Sequence record: KY435490
DNA length: 44,246 bases
Direction: 5' to 3' (one strand)
Origin: Escherichia phage K1E
Below, in pieces: positions 1,652-29,558 of this stretch. Position 1 is the stretch's first letter; each line of letters starts with the position of its first letter. The notes under the pieces are model-generated. The model was given only the letters and a program-made list of their open reading frames with translations. It was not told the DNA's origin and made no database searches. The position numbers and the translations under genes were made by a program.

Positions 1652-1718
1652 GTAACCTCCTTTTCTGAAAGGCTACCATCATGATAACCTTTAAGAAAAG
1701 TTGCGCGAAAAGCAGTGC

Positions 1719-2054
1719 TTACGCACTGACAATGTGTTTACCTAGAATGTAAACATCTACATCTACGTCTATTTCAACTTGTGCTGTATGGAACACATGT
1801 ACTTCTAATCTAGTATCTGACACTTTAGTAATCCAAGCTGTACAAAGTGTAGGTGTACTTAATGATACAAGTGATGCCCACGAAGAATCTAAATCTCCTG
1901 TTGCAGGTACTTCTATCTCAATTTTAGTATCTTCACTTGGAACTACACCTTCAAATGTAACACGCCTTTTAGATAGTAAATTATCCAATAATGTAGCTAG
2001 TACAGTATCTCTATGTAGTAAGCCAGTTGTCTTGGGTTTAGTTAACTTAGCCAT
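1719..2054 (-). CDS. Small protein (111 aa) immediately upstream of the endosialidase; possibly a remnant or N-terminal fragment of a second tailspike
   Basis: Internal ATG at 2054 preceded by AGGAG (track ORF 1719..2114 starts further upstream without an RBS); phage promoter just upstream at 2139..2156. Confidence 0.5.
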   Translation of the reverse strand: MAKLTKPKTTGLLHRDTVLATLLDNLLSKRRVTFEGVVPSEDTKIEIEVPATGDLDSSWASLVSLSTPTLCTAWITKVSDTRLEVHVFHTAQVEIDVDVDVYILGKHIVSA

Positions 2055-2138
2055 ATACTCTCCTATTACTTCCCAATCCTCCCTATGAAGATTGGCTAGT
2101 AATAGGCCGCTCAAAAGAACGGCACTATCTTATCTCTT

Positions 2139-2156
2139 CTATAGTGTCCAGTAAAT
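2139..2156 (-). promoter_or_regulatory. Phage RNAP promoter (ATTTACTGGACACTATAG) ahead of the tailspike genes
   Basis: Exact match to the consensus repeated in this genome; SP6-type promoter family. Confidence 0.7.
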
Positions 2157-2185
2157 CGTAAGACACTGATACATAAAACTATGTA

Positions 2186-2383
2186 TTAATTATACCCGCG
2201 TTCTAGCGAGAGAATGTACAGACCTAATTTTGTAGCGTCAGGCTTACTGAAGCAGACTTTATCGTCCACCTCGTAGACTGCCGTAATCGTCGGCTTCAGA
2301 GGCTTCACCTTTGGATTCTCTGGTAACGCCGTCTGACACCCTGAAGTGATCAGCGAACCAATCAGCAGGATTGTCGCTAGCAT
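2186..2383 (-). CDS. Rz1-like o-spanin (outer-membrane lipoprotein), overlapping the Rz-like gene in another frame
   Basis: Internal ATG at 2383 with GAGG RBS; MLATILLIGSLITSGCQT... has a lipobox (LITSGC) and a Pro-rich mature part. Confidence 0.5.
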   Translation of the reverse strand: MLATILLIGSLITSGCQTALPENPKVKPLKPTITAVYEVDDKVCFSKPDATKLGLYILSLERGYN

Positions 2384-2480
2384 GATTCGCCTCACTTTGT
2401 GCCTCCTTCTCTTCCTTCTTCTTCTTAGCGGCAAGCAGCAGGCCAATAAGACCTGCTACCACCTCTAGCACCTTATTCAC
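2259..2480 (-). CDS. Rz-like i-spanin candidate (N-terminal transmembrane helix)
   Basis: GTG start; MNKVLEVVAGLIGLLLAAKKKKEEKE...; overlaps the lipoprotein ORF as in Rz/Rz1 pairs. Confidence 0.45.
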   Translation of the reverse strand: MNKVLEVVAGLIGLLLAAKKKKEEKEAQSEANHASDNPADWFADHFRVSDGVTRESKGEASEADDYGSLRGGR

Positions 2481-2622
2481 AGGTGATTACTTGGCACACC
2501 ACGTCAGTGACGGAACCTTCCGTACCTTCACCAAAATCTACGCCAAGTCCTACAGAAACAAGGGCAATCACCAGTGCAACCAGTGCACCTACCACCTTCT
2601 TAGACTTAAACAACTTTTTCAT
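2473..2622 (-). CDS. Small single-TM membrane protein (49 aa), holin/antiholin-like, between the endolysin and the spanins
   Basis: ATG at 2622 after AGGGGAG; MKKLFKSKKVVGALVALVIALVSVGLGVDFGEGTEGSVTDVVCQVITCE; below the ORF-track cutoff. Confidence 0.35.
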   Translation of the reverse strand: MKKLFKSKKVVGALVALVIALVSVGLGVDFGEGTEGSVTDVVCQVITCE

Positions 2623-2720
2623 TGCATCTCCCCTTCCATTGAGCTAGCAGGTCCGAGTAGTTCTTCCAGTCATCATAGTTGCCGCCCTCGGCAGCTTGAG
2701 CAACCATGCGCTCACACCAT

Positions 2721-3074
2721 TCAACACAACTTACCATCGCGCACACCCATCTCGTACATCAATGTGAGTGAAGTTTGGTAAGACCCAATGCCATATCTAT
2801 TAGGGTATCGTGCTGTTAGGTAAGACCATACACGATACGGTGTAATACCTTGTACCTTAATATCAGCAGCCTTACCTGTAAGATGCATGGAGTTCTTAGC
2901 TCCACCTACGTTGGCGTTGTGCTTAGCACAGCGATGACCAGAAGTGATAACTACAGGTACGCCAAAATGCTCACGTACATCTGTTACTACCTGTAATAAC
3001 TCAGCATCAACAGTGGATGTACAGCACCCACAACGGCAAGCAAACTCTTTACGCTTGAAGTACTTGTTAAGCAT
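2721..3074 (-). CDS. Endolysin, peptidase M15 family (zinc D-Ala-D-Ala carboxypeptidase / L-Ala-D-Glu peptidase fold)
   Basis: SMHLTGKAAD matches the SxHxxGxAxD signature; internal ATG at 3074 overlaps the upstream stop (TAATAATG). Confidence 0.75.
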   Translation of the reverse strand: MLNKYFKRKEFACRCGCCTSTVDAELLQVVTDVREHFGVPVVITSGHRCAKHNANVGGAKNSMHLTGKAADIKVQGITPYRVWSYLTARYPNRYGIGSYQTSLTLMYEMGVRDGKLC

Positions 3075-3076
3075 TA

Positions 3077-3367
3077 TTAGCCCCCTGCTGGAGTGACAGG
3101 TGCCACCTCCATAGTAGTTGCATCCCACTTGTCAGTTGGTTCACTACCACGTGCAATAGCGATGTACAAGGAGTTGACACCCTTCTCTACAGCAACCATG
3201 GCGCCTTTCTGTTTACCAGATAGGTGTTTAATGTTGATAGGGTGATCTTTCTTCTTAAGGTCTTCTTCAGCAACAATAGGCAGAGGGATTGCCGTTGCAG
3301 TGGTTTGTACAGTTTTTACTCGAAAAGCCTGACCAGTAACAGTACCTGTGTTTCCATATTTAGACAT
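3077..3367 (-). CDS. Hypothetical protein, paralogue B of a tandem pair
   Basis: 96 aa; shares ...SGKQKGAMV...AIA... with the adjacent ORF 3380..3658. Confidence 0.55.
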   Translation of the reverse strand: MSKYGNTGTVTGQAFRVKTVQTTATAIPLPIVAEEDLKKKDHPINIKHLSGKQKGAMVAVEKGVNSLYIAIARGSEPTDKWDATTMEVAPVTPAGG

Positions 3368-3379
3368 GTAACTCTCCTC

Positions 3380-3658
3380 TTAAGCTGGGGTAATAGTAGT
3401 GACCGCTTTATTAGCTGTCAACCAATTGGAATCTTCTTTGCCATCAACTGCGATAGCAATAACCAGGTTATCATGTGTATCAAGACACACCATGGCCCCT
3501 TTCTGCTTACCTGATTTGGTGGCATCATTAATAACATCACCTTTCTTCTCAACAGTATCCTCGTAAACTACAGGAAGCATAAGGGCTTCACTAACAGGTT
3601 GTATCTGCTTACGAGCAGACTTACCTGTAAGAGGTTGTGTACTATAACTATTAGACAT
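3380..3658 (-). CDS. Hypothetical protein, paralogue A of a tandem pair
   Basis: ATG at 3658 preceded by AGGAG(AG)n; 92 aa MSNSYSTQPLTGKSARKQ...; the 5' UTR carries the hairpin GGGTGTAC-tcct-GTACACCC. Confidence 0.55.
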   Translation of the reverse strand: MSNSYSTQPLTGKSARKQIQPVSEALMLPVVYEDTVEKKGDVINDATKSGKQKGAMVCLDTHDNLVIAIAVDGKEDSNWLTANKAVTTITPA

Positions 3659-3802
3659 TCTCTCTCTCTCTCCTATTATGTAAGTATAGTAAGGAAGTAA
3701 GGAATAGGGTGTACAGGAGTACACCCATACTAAGGAATACCTATATAACCTAGGTTAACCTATATTATCCTTGTTATTTCTCTTATTATCTGGGCCTTCC
3801 TT

Positions 3803-3820
3803 CTATAGTGTCCGGTAATT
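3803..3820 (-). promoter_or_regulatory. Phage RNAP promoter (AATTACCGGACACTATAG)
   Basis: Consensus match directly downstream of the terminase large subunit gene. Confidence 0.65.
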
Positions 3821-5717
3821 AATAAGTCCTTGAAATCCTTGCAGAAAGTGTATTTCTGCTTGCCGATTTACTCCTGTAATTCTGACCGTATACTCTTTGC
3901 TGCATAGCCACGGAAGTGTTGGTTACTCTTCGCTCAGTGCCATAATCTCCATAGAGCATTGCCCTACGGAGGTGAGGTGTGTTCATAGCATGGATGTAAT
4001 CGCGCATCTCCTGCGCTCTGAGGCGATTAATCCGTGTAACCTCGTCATAGTCTATCTGAGAAGTTAATTGCCGTATAGCGCCATACAGAGCGTCTAAGCG
4101 GTCATCGTGTCGTAGGCTGTTCTTCTCAATCGTGATGTTCGACATTTGATTGAAAAGGCTGTATGACATGCGTAGTTCAAGCGGATAGTGCTGTACCGAC
4201 TCAAAATCAGACTTGACCATCTCTGCGTTGAAGATGAGCCTGTGGGCCGCCATTAGTGGCTCTAGTGTTTCAATGATACGCAACTCTTTCTGTCCGGTGG
4301 CGTAATCTTCCTCCAGAACCACAGGCCACTCTCGTTCAAAGTATGGCTTTATAACGGCCTCAAACGCGCCATGACCAAAGTTCTTTTCAATGAATACCTC
4401 TTTAACACCTGCCTGCTTTGCGGCCTGCACAATGCGATTCAGGGACGATTCGCGGTATCCTCCCGGCACACCAAAGCACTGATACACATAAATGAATGTG
4501 CCGTGCAGGAAGACGATAGCCACACCCGTTTCATCCCCGTTCTTACCGCCACCCGCAGGGTCAATATACATAATCTTACGGGTAACAGCACCCCATTCAT
4601 AAGGACGGGCTACAGGTCTATACATAAAGTCTGTAGGCTTGTTACCATACTTAGGGGCATCGCCAATGATATTAATAGAATCATTACTCCACGTAGGCAT
4701 CACAGGGACTTCCTCTGTACCGAACGAAGTAAAGATTAGATTGTTTAGACGAAGTGGGTATCTGTCAGCATCCATCATGCGAGTGTTCAGCATAAACTGA
4801 AGCTGGAACTTAGCAGCACCTTGAGAGATTTCCTTCTCAATCAACACGTCATCATCGTACATTTCAGGTGCGCAAGGTGCACCACTGTTACCGTCTAACC
4901 CATAACCAGAGCGAAGTGCTGGGTTGTCTTTCATATCCTGCACAATCATAGGTGCAAGGAAGTCACCATAGCATTGCTCCTGCTCTACTGATGGATAACG
5001 TGCAGTCCAGATACGAACCGAGTAACCACGAGCAGGTAAGTTGTTGTAGATAGAGTTTACGTTCTGAGGAGTACCAAGGTAGATGATATCACCAAACTGG
5101 TTGATAGATTCAAACTCCTTGGTCAACTCCTCAAGCAAGGCACGGCCTGCTGCTGTACGAGCATTCTGCATCGATTCTACGTCATCTGCTAGAATAATAT
5201 CAGCACGAGCACCCTGCATACCTGCTTCGATAGAGTAACAGGATACAGAAGGTGACTTATCGCTGCCGCGTAACGTGTAGTGAATCTCAAATGCTTTGAC
5301 TGATGCACGGTCGCCAGCGTATATGTCCGGTAGCATAAACTCAAGGAAGTCTAGGCCACGGAAGATTTTCACTACCCAACCTGCGATTTCCTCTGCTCGC
5401 TTGGCGTTTTGGGATACTACCATGATACGCTTATGGGGTTCATGGATGATACGGAAAACAGTATAGATTGCTGATAGTGTAGTTTTAGCGATACCACGGG
5501 GCGCTTCGATGAGGCGATATTTATGTCCATAGAATAGAAACTTTAAAATATCGGCCTGCATACGAATCAGATGAGGGTTGCCTGCAATCAAGTTATGGAT
5601 AACTGTATCTGCAAAGAGAAGCAAACCTTCCGCCGTATACGGAAAAGTTTGCTGTAACTCCTGTAGCATCTCCCATCTGGCAAGAGCCTCCGCTTGTGAT
5701 TCTCTTGCCTTAGCCAT
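3819..5717 (-). CDS. Terminase large subunit (T7 gp19-like)
   Basis: 632 aa; ATG at 5717 after GGAGG, overlapping the upstream stop (TGATG); ATPase plus nuclease architecture. Confidence 0.93.
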   Translation of the reverse strand: MAKARESQAEALARWEMLQELQQTFPYTAEGLLLFADTVIHNLIAGNPHLIRMQADILKFLFYGHKYRLIEAPRGIAKTTLSAIYTVFRIIHEPHKRIMVVSQNAKRAEEIAGWVVKIFRGLDFLEFMLPDIYAGDRASVKAFEIHYTLRGSDKSPSVSCYSIEAGMQGARADIILADDVESMQNARTAAGRALLEELTKEFESINQFGDIIYLGTPQNVNSIYNNLPARGYSVRIWTARYPSVEQEQCYGDFLAPMIVQDMKDNPALRSGYGLDGNSGAPCAPEMYDDDVLIEKEISQGAAKFQLQFMLNTRMMDADRYPLRLNNLIFTSFGTEEVPVMPTWSNDSINIIGDAPKYGNKPTDFMYRPVARPYEWGAVTRKIMYIDPAGGGKNGDETGVAIVFLHGTFIYVYQCFGVPGGYRESSLNRIVQAAKQAGVKEVFIEKNFGHGAFEAVIKPYFEREWPVVLEEDYATGQKELRIIETLEPLMAAHRLIFNAEMVKSDFESVQHYPLELRMSYSLFNQMSNITIEKNSLRHDDRLDALYGAIRQLTSQIDYDEVTRINRLRAQEMRDYIHAMNTPHLRRAMLYGDYGTERRVTNTSVAMQQRVYGQNYRSKSASRNTLSARISRTY

Positions 5718-6016
5718 CAATCCTCCTTAGTAAATTGAATAATCTTACCACTGGATGCCTCTCGGATAGCCTTGAGGCGCTTAGATAACTTGGATTCTTC
5801 CTGCTGTGCAGCAGGTGTAGCAGTGATGCCATTATCCAGTACCCACTTACACATAGCACCAATGTCTTTACCAGAGACTAAATGCAGTGCTGCATCTGGG
5901 TCTTCTTCTATAGTGTCCAGTATTGCCTGTGCTTTCTTATTAAAGATTTTGGTAATAGCACCATGCAGGATGCCAACTTCATCCTCTGTAGCTGCATGTT
6001 TATTGTGTACGCTCAT
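5717..6016 (-). CDS. Terminase small subunit candidate (T7 gp18 position)
   Basis: 99 aa, immediately upstream of and overlapping the terminase large subunit; GGGAGG RBS. Confidence 0.6.
   Translation of the reverse strand: MSVHNKHAATEDEVGILHGAITKIFNKKAQAILDTIEEDPDAALHLVSGKDIGAMCKWVLDNGITATPAAQQEESKLSKRLKAIREASSGKIIQFTKED
5908..5925 (-). promoter_or_regulatory. Promoter-like sequence (CAATACTGGACACTATAG) inside the terminase small subunit gene
   Basis: Core -13..+1 identical to consensus; -17..-15 divergent. Confidence 0.35.
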
Positions 6017-6444
6017 GTACGCCTCCCGTTAATCCAGTACCATACGGTCTTGTGGTCTAGTCCGAAATGCCTACCAATTTTAGGGTAAGACCAACCTTCC
6101 TCCCTTAATCGTTTAGCTTCAGCAACCTTGTTGTCAATGTTTAAACAACCATAATGTGCATGTATTGTATTCTCCTGTTGAGTACACCACTCTAGGTTGT
6201 CTTTATGACAATTAGAAGGGTTGCGATCTTTATGGTTTACTATCTTATAATTGTGAGGATTAGGTACGTGCTTCCATGCTACTAATCTGTGTACTTTATA
6301 AGTTTTAGTCTTACCATCAATTCGCAGAGAAACAGTACGGTAGCCTCTTTCTCTGATAGCTCCTGCCAGCCTCTTACCCTTCTTACTTAATACAAAACCT
6401 TCTTCAGTTATGATGTATCCTGCTCTTTCAACTTCTGAATACAC
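6013..6444 (-). CDS. HNH endonuclease
   Basis: ...KIVNHKDRNPSNCHKDNLEW... HNH motif; GTG start with AGGAG RBS; overlaps the holin 3' end. Confidence 0.8.
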   Translation of the reverse strand: MYSEVERAGYIITEEGFVLSKKGKRLAGAIRERGYRTVSLRIDGKTKTYKVHRLVAWKHVPNPHNYKIVNHKDRNPSNCHKDNLEWCTQQENTIHAHYGCLNIDNKVAEAKRLREEGWSYPKIGRHFGLDHKTVWYWINGRRT

Positions 6445-6632
6445 TTCTCTTTTCTCCTCTGTTTTATAGTTCGGGCCTTCTCGTAGATAAACCAGCCCAT
6501 TTGCATAATAGTGTAAATGAGGGTCATAATTACAAGCCAGTTATCCCAACTGATACCGAGGAAGTACCCACCTGAGACTAATGCAGGTGGCGCAAGCTTC
6601 ACACCACTATCTACCAGTTCGGAGTTAATCAT
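6408..6632 (-). CDS. Holin, T7 gp17.5-like (class II)
   Basis: 74 aa; MINSELVDSGVKLAPPALVSGGYFLGISWDNWLVIMTLIYTIMQMGW resembles T7 holin; AGGAGG RBS. Confidence 0.7.
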   Translation of the reverse strand: MINSELVDSGVKLAPPALVSGGYFLGISWDNWLVIMTLIYTIMQMGWFIYEKARTIKQRRKEKCIQKLKEQDTS

Positions 6633-6641
6633 CTCACCTCC

Positions 6642-7604
6642 TTACACTAGTTGTAGCTTCATACTTACGACACACTCAGGTAATGGCTCACTGAAAGTGA
6701 TAGTAGACCCTACGATTTCATAAGCATTATTAGGTTGATACAGGCCATCCAAGTATACATCAAGACGTTGGAAAGCCGTTACAATGTCGATAGATTGTGT
6801 ACCTTCACTCACTGCTTGTGTAAAGAGGATAGTATCCGCACTTGTAGGTGGGGTTAAGCGACTACCGATAAGCACATAAACTTCATCCCCAGCCTGTAAT
6901 GGCTCGGACAGGGTTATAACATTATACCCCACTGATACTGCACCTGCTAGTTCATGCTGGAATACACCGTTTATAAACACCATAGCATCATCAAATGAGT
7001 AAGGTGGTCGAATGATTTGCTCTCCACCGGAGGCGACCATATACCAAGGAATAGTGCGATGAGATACACCAGACACCATTCCTCTCTTAATACCAGCAAT
7101 CTCTATATCTTGTGCAGAGTTCCAATCAGTATGCTTCTTGTCGATAGCATCTAGCTGTGATTTATTTACTGCATCTTTTGGATTCTCACCATCAGCTAGG
7201 TCAGTAATCTTATTGCCGCCCCAGCTTACATTCTGCTTAATGAAGTATCCTTCTGGATAAAACCCATCAAGTAACTCCTGTGTAATCTCCAGTATATGAA
7301 TGAAAGAGCCATTTAAAGACTTCATATCCAAGGTAACACCACGGTCAAACTCAGCGTATGGATATTCCTTTTGTACTTCCCTTCGAATACGGAACTTCAA
7401 ACCTGCAACAGGTGCTACATCAAAAGTGATTTGATGCGTACCAGTTAATTGCCAGCCAGATGTAACCTCAATCCAAGTGTTACCTTGAAGAGATTCCACT
7501 ATCACATCTGAGGCACGAAGATAGCCTTTATCCCTACCAGCAAAGCTAAAGGGATAGGTTACTTGCGTACCGTTGGCTATATGTTCTGTGAAAGTATAAC
7601 TCAT
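6642..7604 (-). CDS. Tail fiber-like adaptor protein (T7 gp17 N-terminal-like) that docks the tailspikes
   Basis: 320 aa at the gp17 position, too short for a full fibre. Confidence 0.75.
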   Translation of the reverse strand: MSYTFTEHIANGTQVTYPFSFAGRDKGYLRASDVIVESLQGNTWIEVTSGWQLTGTHQITFDVAPVAGLKFRIRREVQKEYPYAEFDRGVTLDMKSLNGSFIHILEITQELLDGFYPEGYFIKQNVSWGGNKITDLADGENPKDAVNKSQLDAIDKKHTDWNSAQDIEIAGIKRGMVSGVSHRTIPWYMVASGGEQIIRPPYSFDDAMVFINGVFQHELAGAVSVGYNVITLSEPLQAGDEVYVLIGSRLTPPTSADTILFTQAVSEGTQSIDIVTAFQRLDVYLDGLYQPNNAYEIVGSTITFSEPLPECVVSMKLQLV

Positions 7605-10976: not shown

Positions 10977-13925
10977 CTACAACTTAACTTTACCTACCTT
11001 AGAACCTTTAGCTAACTTGGTAGGTGCAGCCTCATAAACCTGATACCAACCATCCGCGCCAATACGTTTATGAGTCCATGCCGAGACAGAACCTGCTGGC
11101 ATAGGTCCACCAAACCTAACCCACATGGAGCCATCTTCACGAGTCTCCACTTCGGTAATCTTAGGCACACCACCAGCAGATGCCATATTGTATGCCTCAG
11201 CGCGTCGCTTCAGTAGGCCAGGAATACGCTTACCTTCACTTGATGCAGTGCCCAGCATTTCGATAAAGCCTTCCGTAAGCTTACCAGCTTTAAATGCAGC
11301 AAGAGCACGCGGTGAGTTCTGGATTCCACCTTTACCTAAATTGTAGGTTAAATCCATCAAGCCACGTTGCTGTGCAGGATGCATCTGGTCAAACGGAATC
11401 TTCCAGTCACGAGTAGGAGGCACATGCTTCTTAGCATCTTGCTCCATAAGAGCGCGAGCCTTGCTCTCTGTAAGCTGAGACATAGACCCTCGATAGGGAA
11501 CTAGTTCATCACCAATCTTAATATACCCGTTTCGCTTCTCTTCTTCCGTTAAGAAATGACCGTAACCGATAGACTCACCGCGAGCGTCTTTATATGGAGT
11601 AAAGGTTCCAGTTGCCTTATTAAAGCCAACTTTATCTTTATTCTCATCCATAGCTAGCTTGTCATAGAATTGTTGCATATTACCTCGATAGTTAATCTCG
11701 AAGTTAGAAGGCAGATTCTCACCAGAAGCAAAAGCAGAAGACATGAGGAAGTTAGCTAGTCCAAATTTACCAATATCTTTGGCAGTTGGTTTAGCTGGCA
11801 TAGGCTCTTGTGCACCAATATCTGTACGATACGGGTGAACATACTCGCCTTTATCTCGTTCCTCTACTTTCTTCTGATAGGCAGAATCTAGTAGTGAAGT
11901 GGTATCTAAAGAGGTTACAGGGATTACTCCAGAAAGAGGGCGACCTGCTGCACCAGCACGAATCACAAAAGTTCCTTTCTGTTCATTGTAATCAATGTAT
12001 ATATCATCTTTAGTTTCCCACTCTTGAAGCTCCTTCTTCAATTCTGGCATCTGTGTTTCTACATACCTACCAAGCGCCAGAGGTACATCGGTAGGGTTTA
12101 CGCCTTTCCCAACTGACATAAGCATATCAGATGCAGAAGTGTAATCACCTTTAATGAAATAGCCACCGGAAGTCTTTGCATCCTCTGATTGAGTGTAGCG
12201 TTTATTGCCCCAAGTAATTAAAGCCTTCTTGATAGAATCCATGTTACGCATACCGCTAGACCACAACATATTGGCCTTAGCTCGTAACTCTTCTTCCGCA
12301 ATAGCTTTACCTAAGTCTGACACTTCGGTTTTACCATCAAACCAGCCAGCACCAGATACCTCATCCAGTGCATCTCCAATAGCTGAGTTGAACTTCTTGG
12401 TTTCCTTCTCAGTACGAGAGAATTTCTGCTGTGCTTCACGCGCAAACCTTGCAGCCTGCAAAGGTGTCTCTCCCATTTGTAGTGCAGTGTTGTAGTTATC
12501 CATGTAGCCATTAACCGTGTCACCAAAGACACCTCGGCTCTCTTCTGGCAACTGTTCCCACAACTGGCGAATAGTCATCAACTCCTGTGGTTCGCCCTTG
12601 GCAAAGTGCTCAGGCGATAGCATAGATTCCATGGCTTTGATACGAGACTCAAAGGTGTCATCCACTAAGCCTTTGGAGTTCATGAATTGCAGACGCTGCA
12701 CTTCCACTGCACCACGAATAGCTTCAGCCTCTTGACTGTAAGGATCCAAGCCACGTTGTTTGATTTGCTGGTCTGCATAAAGTTGGCTATCCTGTTTGAT
12801 AACATCAATGTAAGCCTTCTTCTCTTTATCAGTCTTACCTTGGAAGCCAGTCAGGCGGTCGGAGTAAAGCTCACGTCGCATATCCTGCATTGCACCTAGC
12901 TCTGCATTTTGCTTAGCCCGTTGGCGCATCAGTGCCTCTAGCTCTGGATTAGAGAAGACATAGTTACCTGTCAGATTATTAATGTGCTGTGCTCGTTCCA
13001 ACAATTCTTCATCAGTTAAATCACCTGCAAGGTATGATTCTTTAACTTCGAAAGACATACGAGTTACATCAGCTACATTATTCCTAGCCCAAACTGCATT
13101 ACCACTAGTGATGGCTGTGATAAGCTGTGGATTCTTAGCATAAACAGAAACACCCTTATCGTCCTTCACATACTTCAGGGCTTCAGCCATGCTAACATCA
13201 CCGCCTTGTGCAAGTGAAATTGCTCGCTGGACTAACTTCTTGTGCATCTGTTCAGGTAGTAATCCTTGAGTAAGACCTTCGCGGATTCGTTCCTGTAAAG
13301 CATAGCCAGAAGCTTCAGGGTCAATATTAGAATCCCAAGTAGAAGCCACTCGCCCGTCAAAGGTATCCTCACGGTCTGCTTGTTCACGGTCAAGTTTATG
13401 CTGGGTCCGTGTAGCCCAAATCTGAGGCTGCTGTTCTTGGAAGACATTAGTGACCATACGCATAGTATCTTTGTCACCTTGCAACTCAGGGTATTGCTGG
13501 AACAGCTTATTCTGCATCTCATTACGAGAGTCAACCATAAGTTGTGTCCACTCGTCATCCGTCCCTTGGAAACGAGTAGCCATGTCTTTCATTCGTGCTG
13601 CTTCATCATTAGCTAGCAGTTGAGCTTTGACAAGCATGTTAGCACGAGCGCCACCACGAGTTGCATCCTCAGAAGGCATTAATCCGTTATATGCCCGTTC
13701 CATTTGAACAACCTTATCTTCCTCAATCTTCTGATTAAGGATACCAGTGGTAACATCAGCCACGCTGCTTGCTGCACGAATAAGATCTTCGATAAATCTA
13801 CTACCGGAGGTAGAAGCCACGCCAGCCTCCACACCTCCCACTTGTTGAGGTGCAAAGGTCATGACATTAGGAGAAGTGGCCTGCACTTGTGGCAGACCTT
13901 GTACTGCTTGTCGCTCAATTGCCAT
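10977..13925 (-). CDS. Internal virion protein, gp15-like, with a C-terminal lysozyme-like domain
   Basis: 982 aa; C-terminal ...FTPYKDARGESIGYGHFL... resembles the Y.D..G..TIG.GH signature of T4/P22 lysozymes (GH24). Confidence 0.8.
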   Translation of the reverse strand: MAIERQAVQGLPQVQATSPNVMTFAPQQVGGVEAGVASTSGSRFIEDLIRAASSVADVTTGILNQKIEEDKVVQMERAYNGLMPSEDATRGGARANMLVKAQLLANDEAARMKDMATRFQGTDDEWTQLMVDSRNEMQNKLFQQYPELQGDKDTMRMVTNVFQEQQPQIWATRTQHKLDREQADREDTFDGRVASTWDSNIDPEASGYALQERIREGLTQGLLPEQMHKKLVQRAISLAQGGDVSMAEALKYVKDDKGVSVYAKNPQLITAITSGNAVWARNNVADVTRMSFEVKESYLAGDLTDEELLERAQHINNLTGNYVFSNPELEALMRQRAKQNAELGAMQDMRRELYSDRLTGFQGKTDKEKKAYIDVIKQDSQLYADQQIKQRGLDPYSQEAEAIRGAVEVQRLQFMNSKGLVDDTFESRIKAMESMLSPEHFAKGEPQELMTIRQLWEQLPEESRGVFGDTVNGYMDNYNTALQMGETPLQAARFAREAQQKFSRTEKETKKFNSAIGDALDEVSGAGWFDGKTEVSDLGKAIAEEELRAKANMLWSSGMRNMDSIKKALITWGNKRYTQSEDAKTSGGYFIKGDYTSASDMLMSVGKGVNPTDVPLALGRYVETQMPELKKELQEWETKDDIYIDYNEQKGTFVIRAGAAGRPLSGVIPVTSLDTTSLLDSAYQKKVEERDKGEYVHPYRTDIGAQEPMPAKPTAKDIGKFGLANFLMSSAFASGENLPSNFEINYRGNMQQFYDKLAMDENKDKVGFNKATGTFTPYKDARGESIGYGHFLTEEEKRNGYIKIGDELVPYRGSMSQLTESKARALMEQDAKKHVPPTRDWKIPFDQMHPAQQRGLMDLTYNLGKGGIQNSPRALAAFKAGKLTEGFIEMLGTASSEGKRIPGLLKRRAEAYNMASAGGVPKITEVETREDGSMWVRFGGPMPAGSVSAWTHKRIGADGWYQVYEAAPTKLAKGSKVGKVKL

Positions 13926-29343: not shown

Positions 29344-29442
29344 TCAGTCGTAGTTACCATCACAATCTGGGTCAATGCCAGAGAAAGCCCAGAATACTAC
29401 CATAAATAATATGATCCCAAGAATGATAAAAGCAGTTTGCAT
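29344..29442 (-). CDS. Small hydrophobic peptide (32 aa)
   Basis: MQTAFIILGIILFMVVFWAFSGIDPDCDGNYD; GAGGAGGG RBS; start overlaps the upstream stop. Confidence 0.3.
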   Translation of the reverse strand: MQTAFIILGIILFMVVFWAFSGIDPDCDGNYD

Positions 29443-29558
29443 CAATCGTAACCCTCCTCTTCATCAGGTATATCTAATCGCATACTTCCATAGCAAGCAA
29501 GCATAAGGAATATAAGAAAGAAGATAGAGAATAGGCAAACAACATCAAACCTGTCCAT
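29442..29558 (-). CDS. Small hydrophobic peptide (38 aa) immediately after the DNA polymerase
   Basis: MDRFDVVCLFSIFFLIFLMLACYGSMRLDIPDEEEGYD; start overlaps the polymerase stop (TGATG). Confidence 0.3.
   Translation of the reverse strand: MDRFDVVCLFSIFFLIFLMLACYGSMRLDIPDEEEGYD

Follow-up and report, generated by a model that had tools for sequence, protein, structure and literature searches.

A single lysis gene set at two sites in a K1E-type podophage genome

The lysis genes in sequence record KY435490 (Escherichia phage K1E; the whole stretch of 44,246 nucleotides (nt) is called the window below) form one dispersed lysis system of SP6/K1E-type podophages (Molineuxvirinae), not two systems. 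Positions 2186-3074 encode an M15 endolysin, a protein of 43 amino acids (aa) called orf43, a 49-aa membrane protein (p49), a 73-aa protein (p73) and a lipoprotein (lipo), and a T7-family holin gene is found at a separate site (Table 1). A preliminary description of this DNA had listed an endolysin, a 49-aa transmembrane protein, overlapping spanin-type genes and a T7-like holin, and all of these are present on the minus strand with support from Pfam and PHROG. It had also called the region a second lysis cassette, and that part does not hold. The genome has a single T7-family holin, a single endolysin and a single lipoprotein, so these genes make up one lysis set at two sites, and the split layout is family-wide. 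On balance the evidence leans towards a single split set in which p49 is an accessory protein resembling T7 gp19.5 and p73 is the partner of the lipoprotein.

Holin, lipoprotein and the split layout

The 74-aa protein outside the region is a predicted class II holin of the gp17.5 type. It matches Pfam PF10746 (holin superfamily II) at 5.5e-18, with 64.9 bits against a cutoff of 25.4, and PHROG 920 'holin' at 2.6e-24. In BLASTP it is 32% identical to T7 gp17.5 (E=3e-8). The protein has hydrophobic segments at residues 17-29 and 32-50, followed by a basic C-terminal tail, EKARTIKQRRKEK. Its gene lies between the tail-fibre adaptor gene and the HNH and small-terminase genes, which is the position of T7 gene 17.5, and the T7-family holin is kept in all of the relatives checked.

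The HNH gene next to the holin gene is a homing-endonuclease gene inserted between it and the small-terminase gene, and its 5' end overlaps the 3' end of the holin gene. ACG-C91 has an HNH gene at the same site, unlike K1E, in which a homing endonuclease instead splits the large terminase (40A/40.5/40B). The C-terminal half of the holin differs between the two arrangements, with 69% identity over 61 aa to K1E.

The identification of lipo as an Rz1-like outer-membrane spanin (o-spanin), a predicted outer-membrane lipoprotein, is well supported. Its signal, MRRIMLATILLIGSLITSG followed by Cys with Gln at +2, has two Arg in the n-region, an h-region of 13-16 aa and the lipobox ITSG ahead of the Cys. 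The supplement of Kongari et al. gives the same lipobox site for K1E (PMC6139136). The mature protein is about 50 aa long, with five Pro, one further Cys and a conserved C-terminus, LGLYILSLERGYN. It matches PHROG 8971 'Rz-like spanin' at 1e-38, is present in 158 phage records, and is curated as an o-spanin by Kongari et al. (2018) and in phages LL11 and Premi. A lipobox scan of the whole genome found one credible lipoprotein ORF (open reading frame), which is lipo. As the preliminary description had noted, the lipoprotein ORF overlaps its neighbour in a different frame; the overlap with p73 is 137 nt, and the predicted lipoprotein signal is present in the sequence. However, the interval 2186..2446 given for it is that of the maximal ORF from a TTG codon. 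The likely start is the GTG at 2395, which is 77 nt past p49 and 6 nt after the Shine-Dalgarno sequence AAGGAGG at 2402-2408.

The split layout is the same in every relative examined (K1E, ACG-C91, SP6, LL11, PP1, and K44PH129C1), and it is also recorded in PMC4640515 and PMC9915841. The genes, their order and the transcription units are shared by K1E (gp38/gp43/gp44/gp45), SP6 (gp39/gp46/gp47/gp48), K1-5, and ACG-C91. The arrangement thus repeats, at 89-100% protein identity, what has been deposited and annotated since 2004 for SP6, K1-5, and K1E. For K1E, RefSeq already has gp38 and gp44 as 'holin', gp43 as 'endolysin' and gp45 as 'Rz-like spanin'. Overall, a layout that is typical of the family and already annotated recurs here in a very close Vectrevirus member; mild interest attaches to which roles p49 and p73 have and to a possible tie to the 'second holin' of T7. 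Compared with the K1E/SP6-type references, the endolysin of the window starts with ATG instead of GTG and has a 1-nt deletion that is probably an error.

The system resembles those of T7 and lambda in part. The T7 lysis genes are likewise dispersed in the late region (3.5, 17.5, 18.5/18.7, and 19.5), with a homologous holin at the same position and a 49-aa gp19.5-type protein after the large terminase. In contrast, the endolysin of the window is a late-region M15 peptidase, while T7 gp3.5 is a class II amidase with a second function, the inhibition of RNA polymerase. The window also lacks an 18.5/18.7 homologue, and its spanin genes come after the terminase and are much shorter. As in lambda Rz/Rz1 and other two-component spanins, there is an outer-membrane lipoprotein whose periplasmic part contains Pro and a Cys, and its gene starts inside another small gene in another frame, beside the endolysin gene. 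Unlike Rz, neither p49 (21 periplasmic residues) nor p73 (about 55, with a short helix and a disordered tail) has a long coiled coil.

KBNP1315, a distant SP6-like phage whose lysis genes have been tested (PMC4640515), also has a holin at the T7 position and its other lysis genes after the terminase. Its endolysin, however, is of the exported signal-anchor-release (SAR) type that lyses without a holin, whereas that of the window is a cytoplasmic M15 peptidase.

The proposed course of lysis follows from these assignments. From its family membership, the gp17.5-type holin would accumulate late in the inner membrane and then trigger. The zinc peptidase, which has no export signal, would cross the holin lesion from the cytoplasm and cut peptidoglycan cross-links. 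The outer-membrane lipoprotein, given its o-spanin features, would then act with an inner-membrane partner to breach or fuse the outer membrane.

The small membrane proteins p49 and p73

Sequence analysis identifies p49 unambiguously as a predicted single-pass inner-membrane protein with N-in/C-out topology. It corresponds to K1E gp44 and SP6 gp47 and is 100% identical to the ACG-C91 protein. The 49-aa sequence, MKKLFKSKKVVGALVALVIALVSVGLGVDFGEGTEGSVTDVVCQVITCE, has a 19-residue uncharged run with five Lys or Arg (K/R; Lys) on the N-terminal flank and no K/R but four D/E on the C-terminal flank, and it closes with a 21-residue acidic periplasmic tail ending in VVCQVITCE. Among 12 members of the family that were tested, the uncharged run is 15-19 aa long (19 outside the PP1 clade), with three to five K/R before it and none after it, and the tail usually has two Cys. 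The PP1-clade proteins have a 15-aa run and three or four K/R on the N-terminal flank. Among the relatives, p49 is the most constant companion of the endolysin.

The public labels of these proteins contradict each other. RefSeq and PHROG 4712 call p49 a 'holin', while the Center for Phage Technology (CPT, Texas A&M) and Kongari et al. (2018) call it an inner-membrane spanin ('i-spanin'). Similarly p73 is 'hypothetical' in some records and 'i-spanin' in others, and propagated annotations are therefore untrustworthy.

Homology between p49 and T7 gp19.5 is plausible, with a probability at or a little above even. T7 gp19.5 (MFRLLLNLLRHRVTYRFLVVLCAALGYASLTGDLSSLESVVCSILTCSD; 49 aa) is the last T7 gene product. 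The two proteins have in common their length, a basic N-terminus, one transmembrane domain and an acidic C-x4-C tail with VVCxxxTC, and both genes lie after the large terminase gene near the right genome end. When gp19.5 was compared with 38,880 PHROGs, it matched its own PHROG 2193, and the sole other match was PHROG 4712, that of p49 (E=0.032). Alignment of p49 and gp19.5 with hhalign gave E=1.6e-4 at a probability of 50% and, with 43 columns aligned, E=6e-4 at a probability of 28%. Shuffled versions of gp19.5 reached the observed score once in 300 segment-wise controls and never in 300 tail-only controls; much lower scores came from five further small membrane proteins and from the reversed sequence. 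With a local hidden Markov model of p49, gp19.5 ranked first of 817 six-frame T7 ORFs, yet with E=0.59. The Pfam family of the gp19.5 tail, DUF5465, was touched by two of 36 p49-family members, with E of at least 0.026. A gp19.5-seeded search for bridging sequences gave only six near-identical proteins.

The link is of interest because gp19.5 exists in T7 alongside a canonical holin and canonical spanins. Genetic evidence implicates gp19.5 as a secondary holin-like factor. An evolved T7 line deleted for 17.5 had a strongly compensatory change in gene 19.5 (A24D, in the transmembrane domain), and E38G arose in an endolysin-defective line (PMC2680503). Xu et al. (2021) found the same two mutations in passaged T7 lacking the holin, with 19.5 mRNA 1.7-4.5-fold higher (PMC8365609). 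In the hhalign alignment T7 E38 pairs with p49 D40, within a conserved T-[DE] just before VVC. The role proposed for p49, rated slightly below even, is that of an accessory membrane protein of the gp19.5 kind, one that would modulate the triggering of the holin or the timing of lysis. The preliminary description had counted the 49-aa protein as a second holin-like candidate, and the gp19.5 precedent makes this plausible, but the curated i-spanin assignments speak against it. If the link is true, SP6/K1E-type phages would be a second independent system for the holin-like activity seen in T7 without 17.5.

A wider proposal, which is distinctly more speculative, is that p49 and gp19.5 belong to one ancient Autographiviridae family of 45-50 aa N-in/C-out proteins. 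This family would provide the 'second holin-like activity' of the T7 type, with timing set through the periplasmic T-[DE]-hh-C-x4-C, and the SP6-type phages would have an ultra-short spanin made of p73 and lipo or of p49, p73, and lipo.

The partner of lipo is tentatively p73, a candidate i-spanin in a minimal 'overlapped' spanin pair; confidence in this is close to even but short of it. p73 is the counterpart of SP6 gp48 and matches PHROG 9219 (function unassigned) at 2e-35. At its N-terminus is a short hydrophobic helix; the protein also has a Lys-rich juxtamembrane helix, the motif NPADWFADHFRV, which is conserved, and a variable tail that is disordered. The start codon, a GTG, overlaps the stop of p49 (GTGAATAA), and p73 is translationally coupled to p49 by this overlap. 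The overlap of the p73 and lipo genes is kept as far as an Aeromonas phage. The entry of Kongari et al. (2018) for the SP6-like phage UAB_Phi78 is an 'overlapped' pair whose i-spanin is 69 aa long and has no coiled coil listed (PMC6139136), and by length and overlap this i-spanin matches the p73 homologue. The KBNP1315 paper names the last two genes Rz and Rz1 (PMC4640515).

Two further ideas about p73 were rejected. Longer relatives of p73 resembling canonical i-spanins were sought among 5.8 billion proteins, and only 56-73-aa proteins from the same phage group were found. Nor does p73 fit the description of a cationic 'disruptin' or of a protein with a cleaved signal peptide, since the -1/-3 positions are not conserved, Lys comes right after the hydrophobic run, and the protein has a net charge of about -3.

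Natural variants differ in which of these genes they keep. Whatever the endolysin type, the block orf43-p49-p73-lipo is found in phages that range from those of E. coli to those of Aeromonas, and also in Proteus and Klebsiella phages. The KBNP1315-type relatives L045 and L046 retain it together with a 185-217-aa endolysin bearing an N-terminal hydrophobic segment, and Aeromonas phage Aer_P220 retains it with a lytic transglycosylase. In the Klebsiella phages K44PH129C1 (L064/L066), pKP-M186-2.1, and HY, a segment of about 245 nt carrying p73 and lipo is cleanly absent between the p49 stop and the hairpin that follows lipo in the window, and the close relative Koku (L063) has the segment. The holin, endolysin, orf43, and p49 are retained in all three of these phages, and no lipobox ORF was found anywhere in them; in K44PH129C1 the holin is of the T7 type, the endolysin is an M15 peptidase, and p49 has diverged but is intact. 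This lineage deleted for p73 and lipo is viable and widely sampled and is without an identifiable spanin or lipoprotein gene. Such natural spanin-less variants are available as comparators.

In the PP1 clade the endolysin gene is followed by a p49-like gene of 45 aa, and orf43, p73, and lipo are absent. Directly upstream of the M15 endolysin gene in this clade lies a conserved lipoprotein ORF of 38 aa that has no annotation (11334-11450 in Pectobacterium phage PP1, L065; 2029-2145 in L062). The mature protein of about 22 aa reads C(I/V)V(I/V)xDSENV...YK(I/V)GL, and it may be a shortened relative of the C-terminal domain of lipo.

Several observations weigh against the reading of p49 as a gp19.5-like accessory and p73 as the partner of lipo. 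The preliminary description called the 73-aa ORF Rz, and this is not established: the hydrophobic run is short, there is no coiled coil, and i-spanin homology is not detectable. The uncharged run of p73 is 12 aa (6-13 in nine diverse homologues), with zero to two K/R before it and three to five after it, and there is no Cys. T7 gp18.5 has a 15-aa run with two K/R on each side, and since its flanking charges are balanced, the charge argument against p73 is not decisive. An AlphaFold2 model of p73 has helices at residues 3-31 and 38-45 and is otherwise disordered (mean pLDDT 61), with no coiled coil. The motif NPxxWFxxHF is kept throughout the relatives, while the last 13 or so residues are variable, or shortened by a stop in several of them. 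No similarity to Rz or T7 gp18.5 was detected for the candidates p49 and p73, and the hhalign probability of p73 with gp18.5 is 0.2%. Among the small ORFs the expected membrane topology is clean in p49 (N-in/C-out), but p73 has a weak hydrophobic segment. The loss of p73 together with lipo is weakened as proof of partnership, because, given the gene overlap, a loss of lipo that leaves p49 in place has to take most of p73 with it. The link of p49 to gp19.5 is statistically marginal, as its hhalign probabilities indicate. The p49 of the window has no DUF5465 match in Pfam, and gp19.5 is absent from the 27 clusters (44-67 aa) given by an exhaustive profile search of 1.84 billion representatives at E<=1e-3. 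A search of the literature found no experiments on p49, p73, or orf43 in any SP6-like phage.

The same side of the balance holds the evidence that p49 itself is the i-spanin, a possibility that is clearly less probable. In that case p49, with a periplasmic arm of about 21 residues, would form a 'separated' two-component spanin with lipo, p73 would be unrelated and perhaps an overprinted regulator at the cytoplasmic face, and the T7-family holin would be the sole holin. This is how p49 is curated by Kongari et al. (2018) for K1-5, K1E, and SP6 (PMC6139136) and by CPT for LL11 and Premi (PMC6687929). Its N-in/C-out topology is of the textbook kind across the family, and its two periplasmic Cys could match the one in lipo. 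The PP1 clade has lost Cys in both the p49-like protein and the 38-aa lipoprotein, and these two proteins are all that it retains, with no p73. On metagenomic contig L072, a remote p49-family gene (MWYKKKRFITAIVTAALVALGALTGVDLSGLEAGLTEAACGIVECVQ; 467-610) directly follows a T7-type small-terminase gene (terS), which is the T7 18.5 position; the contig ends there. For the remote p49-like proteins as a group, the contigs are too short for their genomic context to be informative.

However, the curators themselves flagged p49 as 'Too small? ... only 20 pp residues' and 'Too short', and its 21 periplasmic residues compare with at least 50, in helical form, in the usual case. p49 has no helical or coiled-coil periplasmic domain. 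The same paper picked the p73 homologue in UAB_Phi78. In addition, p49 is diverged but intact in Klebsiella phages without any lipoprotein, and T7 has the canonical spanins 18.5/18.7 as well as gp19.5, the apparent counterpart of p49.

A true second cassette is improbable. It would make p49 the holin or pinholin for the M15 endolysin and leave the T7-family protein redundant, vestigial or an antiholin. In line with this, every relative has p49 immediately behind the endolysin (plus orf43), irrespective of its other genes, and PHROG 4712 and RefSeq use the label 'holin', but no experimental basis for that label was found in the literature. p49 has one transmembrane domain, its N-terminus in the cytoplasm is basic, and its periplasmic tail is tiny and acidic; the charged C-terminal domain that holins typically have in the cytoplasm is missing. 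The T7-family holin is conserved in all relatives checked, and the KBNP1315 holin from the T7 position (ORF46) gave enhanced lysis in co-expression with the endolysin of that phage (PMC4640515).

The pattern of variability by codon position indicates that orf43, p49, p73, and lipo are all coding. Across 24 distinct aligned relatives, the numbers of variable columns at codon positions 1/2/3 are 21/15/31 for orf43, 22/11/39 for p49, 15/6/20 for the non-overlapping part of p73 and 7/0/14 for the exclusive part of lipo. The first of these genes had been overlooked in the preliminary description. It lies between the endolysin gene and p49, shares 17 nt at its 3' end with the start of p49, and is found in relatives as distant as an Aeromonas phage. 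It encodes a soluble protein with a CxxWC motif that matches PHROG 1312 (function unassigned) at 9e-19, and the sole proposal for it is co-translation with p49. The orf43 homologues of LL11 (L003/L008) and of a metagenomic relative (L016) have in-frame stops, one between MVRCVE and CER and one between EEGN and EDW; either the gene is dispensable or these records are erroneous.

The endolysin and its reading frame

The endolysin is a predicted cytoplasmic zinc peptidase that would require a hole-forming holin. From the ATG at 3074, residues 4-101 match Pfam PF08291 Peptidase_M15_3 at 8.7e-29 (100.3 bits against a cutoff of 23.2), and the protein matches PHROG 894 'endolysin' at 3e-40. The motif region aligns to the zinc D-Ala-D-Ala carboxypeptidase of PDB 1LBU (E=2.7e-4), and the H-x6-D zinc-ligand motif is present (SMHLTGKAAD). 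The N-terminus, MLNKYFKRKEFACRCGCC, is without a hydrophobic stretch, and no signal peptide or SAR sequence was found.

The endolysin ORF is broken in the sequence as given, and this is almost certainly a sequencing artefact. As sequenced it runs from 3074 to 2721 and encodes 117 aa with an aberrant C-terminus, since the frame changes after 100 codons. The third zinc-ligand His (FTHIDVR) is missing from this ORF, is intact in the adjacent frame and is recovered by adding one A. The site is a T-run at 2774-2776, which is A3 on the coding strand, and ACG-C91 has A4 in the alignment. The relatives end in GIGSYQNFTHIDVRDGCARW and the window in GIGSYQTSLTLMYEMGVRDGKLC. The conserved C-terminus NFTHIDVRDGCARW is undamaged in the other frame up to the true stop at 2731-2733, with no further decay, and an intact C-terminus (FTHIDVR..ARW and stop) is found in 27 of 27 related loci. 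The repaired stop overlaps the orf43 start (ATGGTAA).

The same type of error affects other genes. At least seven conserved genes are split by 1-nt homopolymer deletions relative to ACG-C91. They include the endolysin, portal, and metallophosphoesterase genes and the homologues of ACG-C91 gp40, gp38, gp49, and gp50. The deletions lie at 2774-2776 (endolysin), ~21422 (portal), ~24629 (metallophosphoesterase), ~32298, ~32890, ~40546, and ~40686. The portal is indispensable to the phage and yet its gene is split likewise, so the deletions are sequencing or assembly errors, and homopolymer errors seem to be systematic in this assembly. For the endolysin, programmed frameshifting and a pseudogene were both rejected, because the same deletion type breaks the portal and at least five other conserved genes. 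A real frameshift, with a zinc-ligand-deficient peptidase and lysis through a different muralytic function, for example that of a lysozyme domain in an internal virion protein, would agree with the A3 in the given sequence and with the finding that lysozyme-less T7 can evolve lysis through the gp16 muralytic domain (PMC2680503), but it is very unlikely given the splitting of at least six further conserved genes, the essential portal included, and the perfect shifted-frame C-terminus that all 27 relatives have intact. Automatic annotation will miscall the endolysin, portal, and other genes here, which is relevant if the endolysin is cloned as an enzybiotic.

Gene order, transcription and neighboring genes

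The window is a complete Vectrevirus genome, circularly permuted relative to the ACG-C91 record according to whole-genome comparison, and every gene is on the minus strand. Megablast of positions 1700-7000 and 2100-3400 against GenBank phages gave full-length matches with nucleotide identities of 93.8% to ACG-C91, 92-95% to K1E, 85% to K1-5, and about 80% to SP6-type Salmonella phages; no identical record was found in these searches.

The genes gp41-gp42-endolysin-orf43-p49-p73-lipo are one promoter-bounded late unit, since an SP6-type promoter lies ahead of them and a hairpin and another such promoter come after them (Table 1). The hairpin is the 3' boundary of the lysis unit and is kept in the alignments of ACG-C91, K1E, Koku, and K44PH129C1. 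There are 15 SP6-type promoter sites in the window, while 0.19 are expected. Scans for sigma-70 promoters and intrinsic terminators yielded no excess over shuffled sequence. The holin gene is located upstream, within the structural-gene transcript, 3.3 kb from the lysis module.

Table 1. Lysis genes of the window, their neighbors and the transcription signals around them
Feature	Positions	Strand	Support or remark
Tail-fibre adaptor gene	6642-7604	-	
T7-family holin, 74 aa	6408-6632	-	Pfam PF10746, PHROG 920
HNH endonuclease	6013-6444	-	
Small terminase	5717-6016	-	
Large terminase	3819-5720	-	
SP6-type promoter	3800-3819	-	TTTANNNGACACTATAGAAG with 1 mismatch; just past large-terminase stop
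Small protein, paralogue 1	3380-3658	-	
Small protein, paralogue 2	3077-3367	-	
M15 endolysin, repaired, 114 aa	2731-3074	-	Peptidase_M15_3, PHROG 894
orf43, 43 aa	2606-2737	-	PHROG 1312
p49, 49 aa	2473-2622	-	PHROG 4712
p73, 73 aa	2259-2480	-	PHROG 9219
lipo, lipoprotein ORF, 69 aa	2186-2395	-	PHROG 8971
AT-rich hairpin ATACATA-GTTT-TATGTAT	2169-2186	-	begins inside lipo stop codon
Following SP6-type promoter	2134-2156	-	ATTTACTGGACACTATAGAAGAG; drives gp46 and tailspike

A second hairpin is found at the start of the unit. It is GC-rich with an 8-bp stem (GGGTGTAC-TCCT-GTACACCC, 3707-3726, minus strand), lies between the promoter and the first gene of the unit, and may act as an RNA stem at the 5' end or as a site of the RNase III type.

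The two paralogues ahead of the endolysin gene are in tandem, encode proteins of about 92-96 aa and have the common motif SGKQKGAMV; PP1 has three copies. PHROG 2725 and RefSeq label them 'acetyl-CoA acetyltransferase'. This label looks like an annotation artefact, because the proteins have no Pfam match and are far undersized for that enzyme.

The lipobox scan also picked up a 38-aa hydrophobic ORF, MDRFDVVCLFSIFFLIFLMLACYGSMRLDIPDEEEGYD, at 29442-29558 on the minus strand, directly after the DNA polymerase gene. It corresponds to the K1E PK1Ep23-like gene and probably encodes a small membrane protein, not a lipoprotein.

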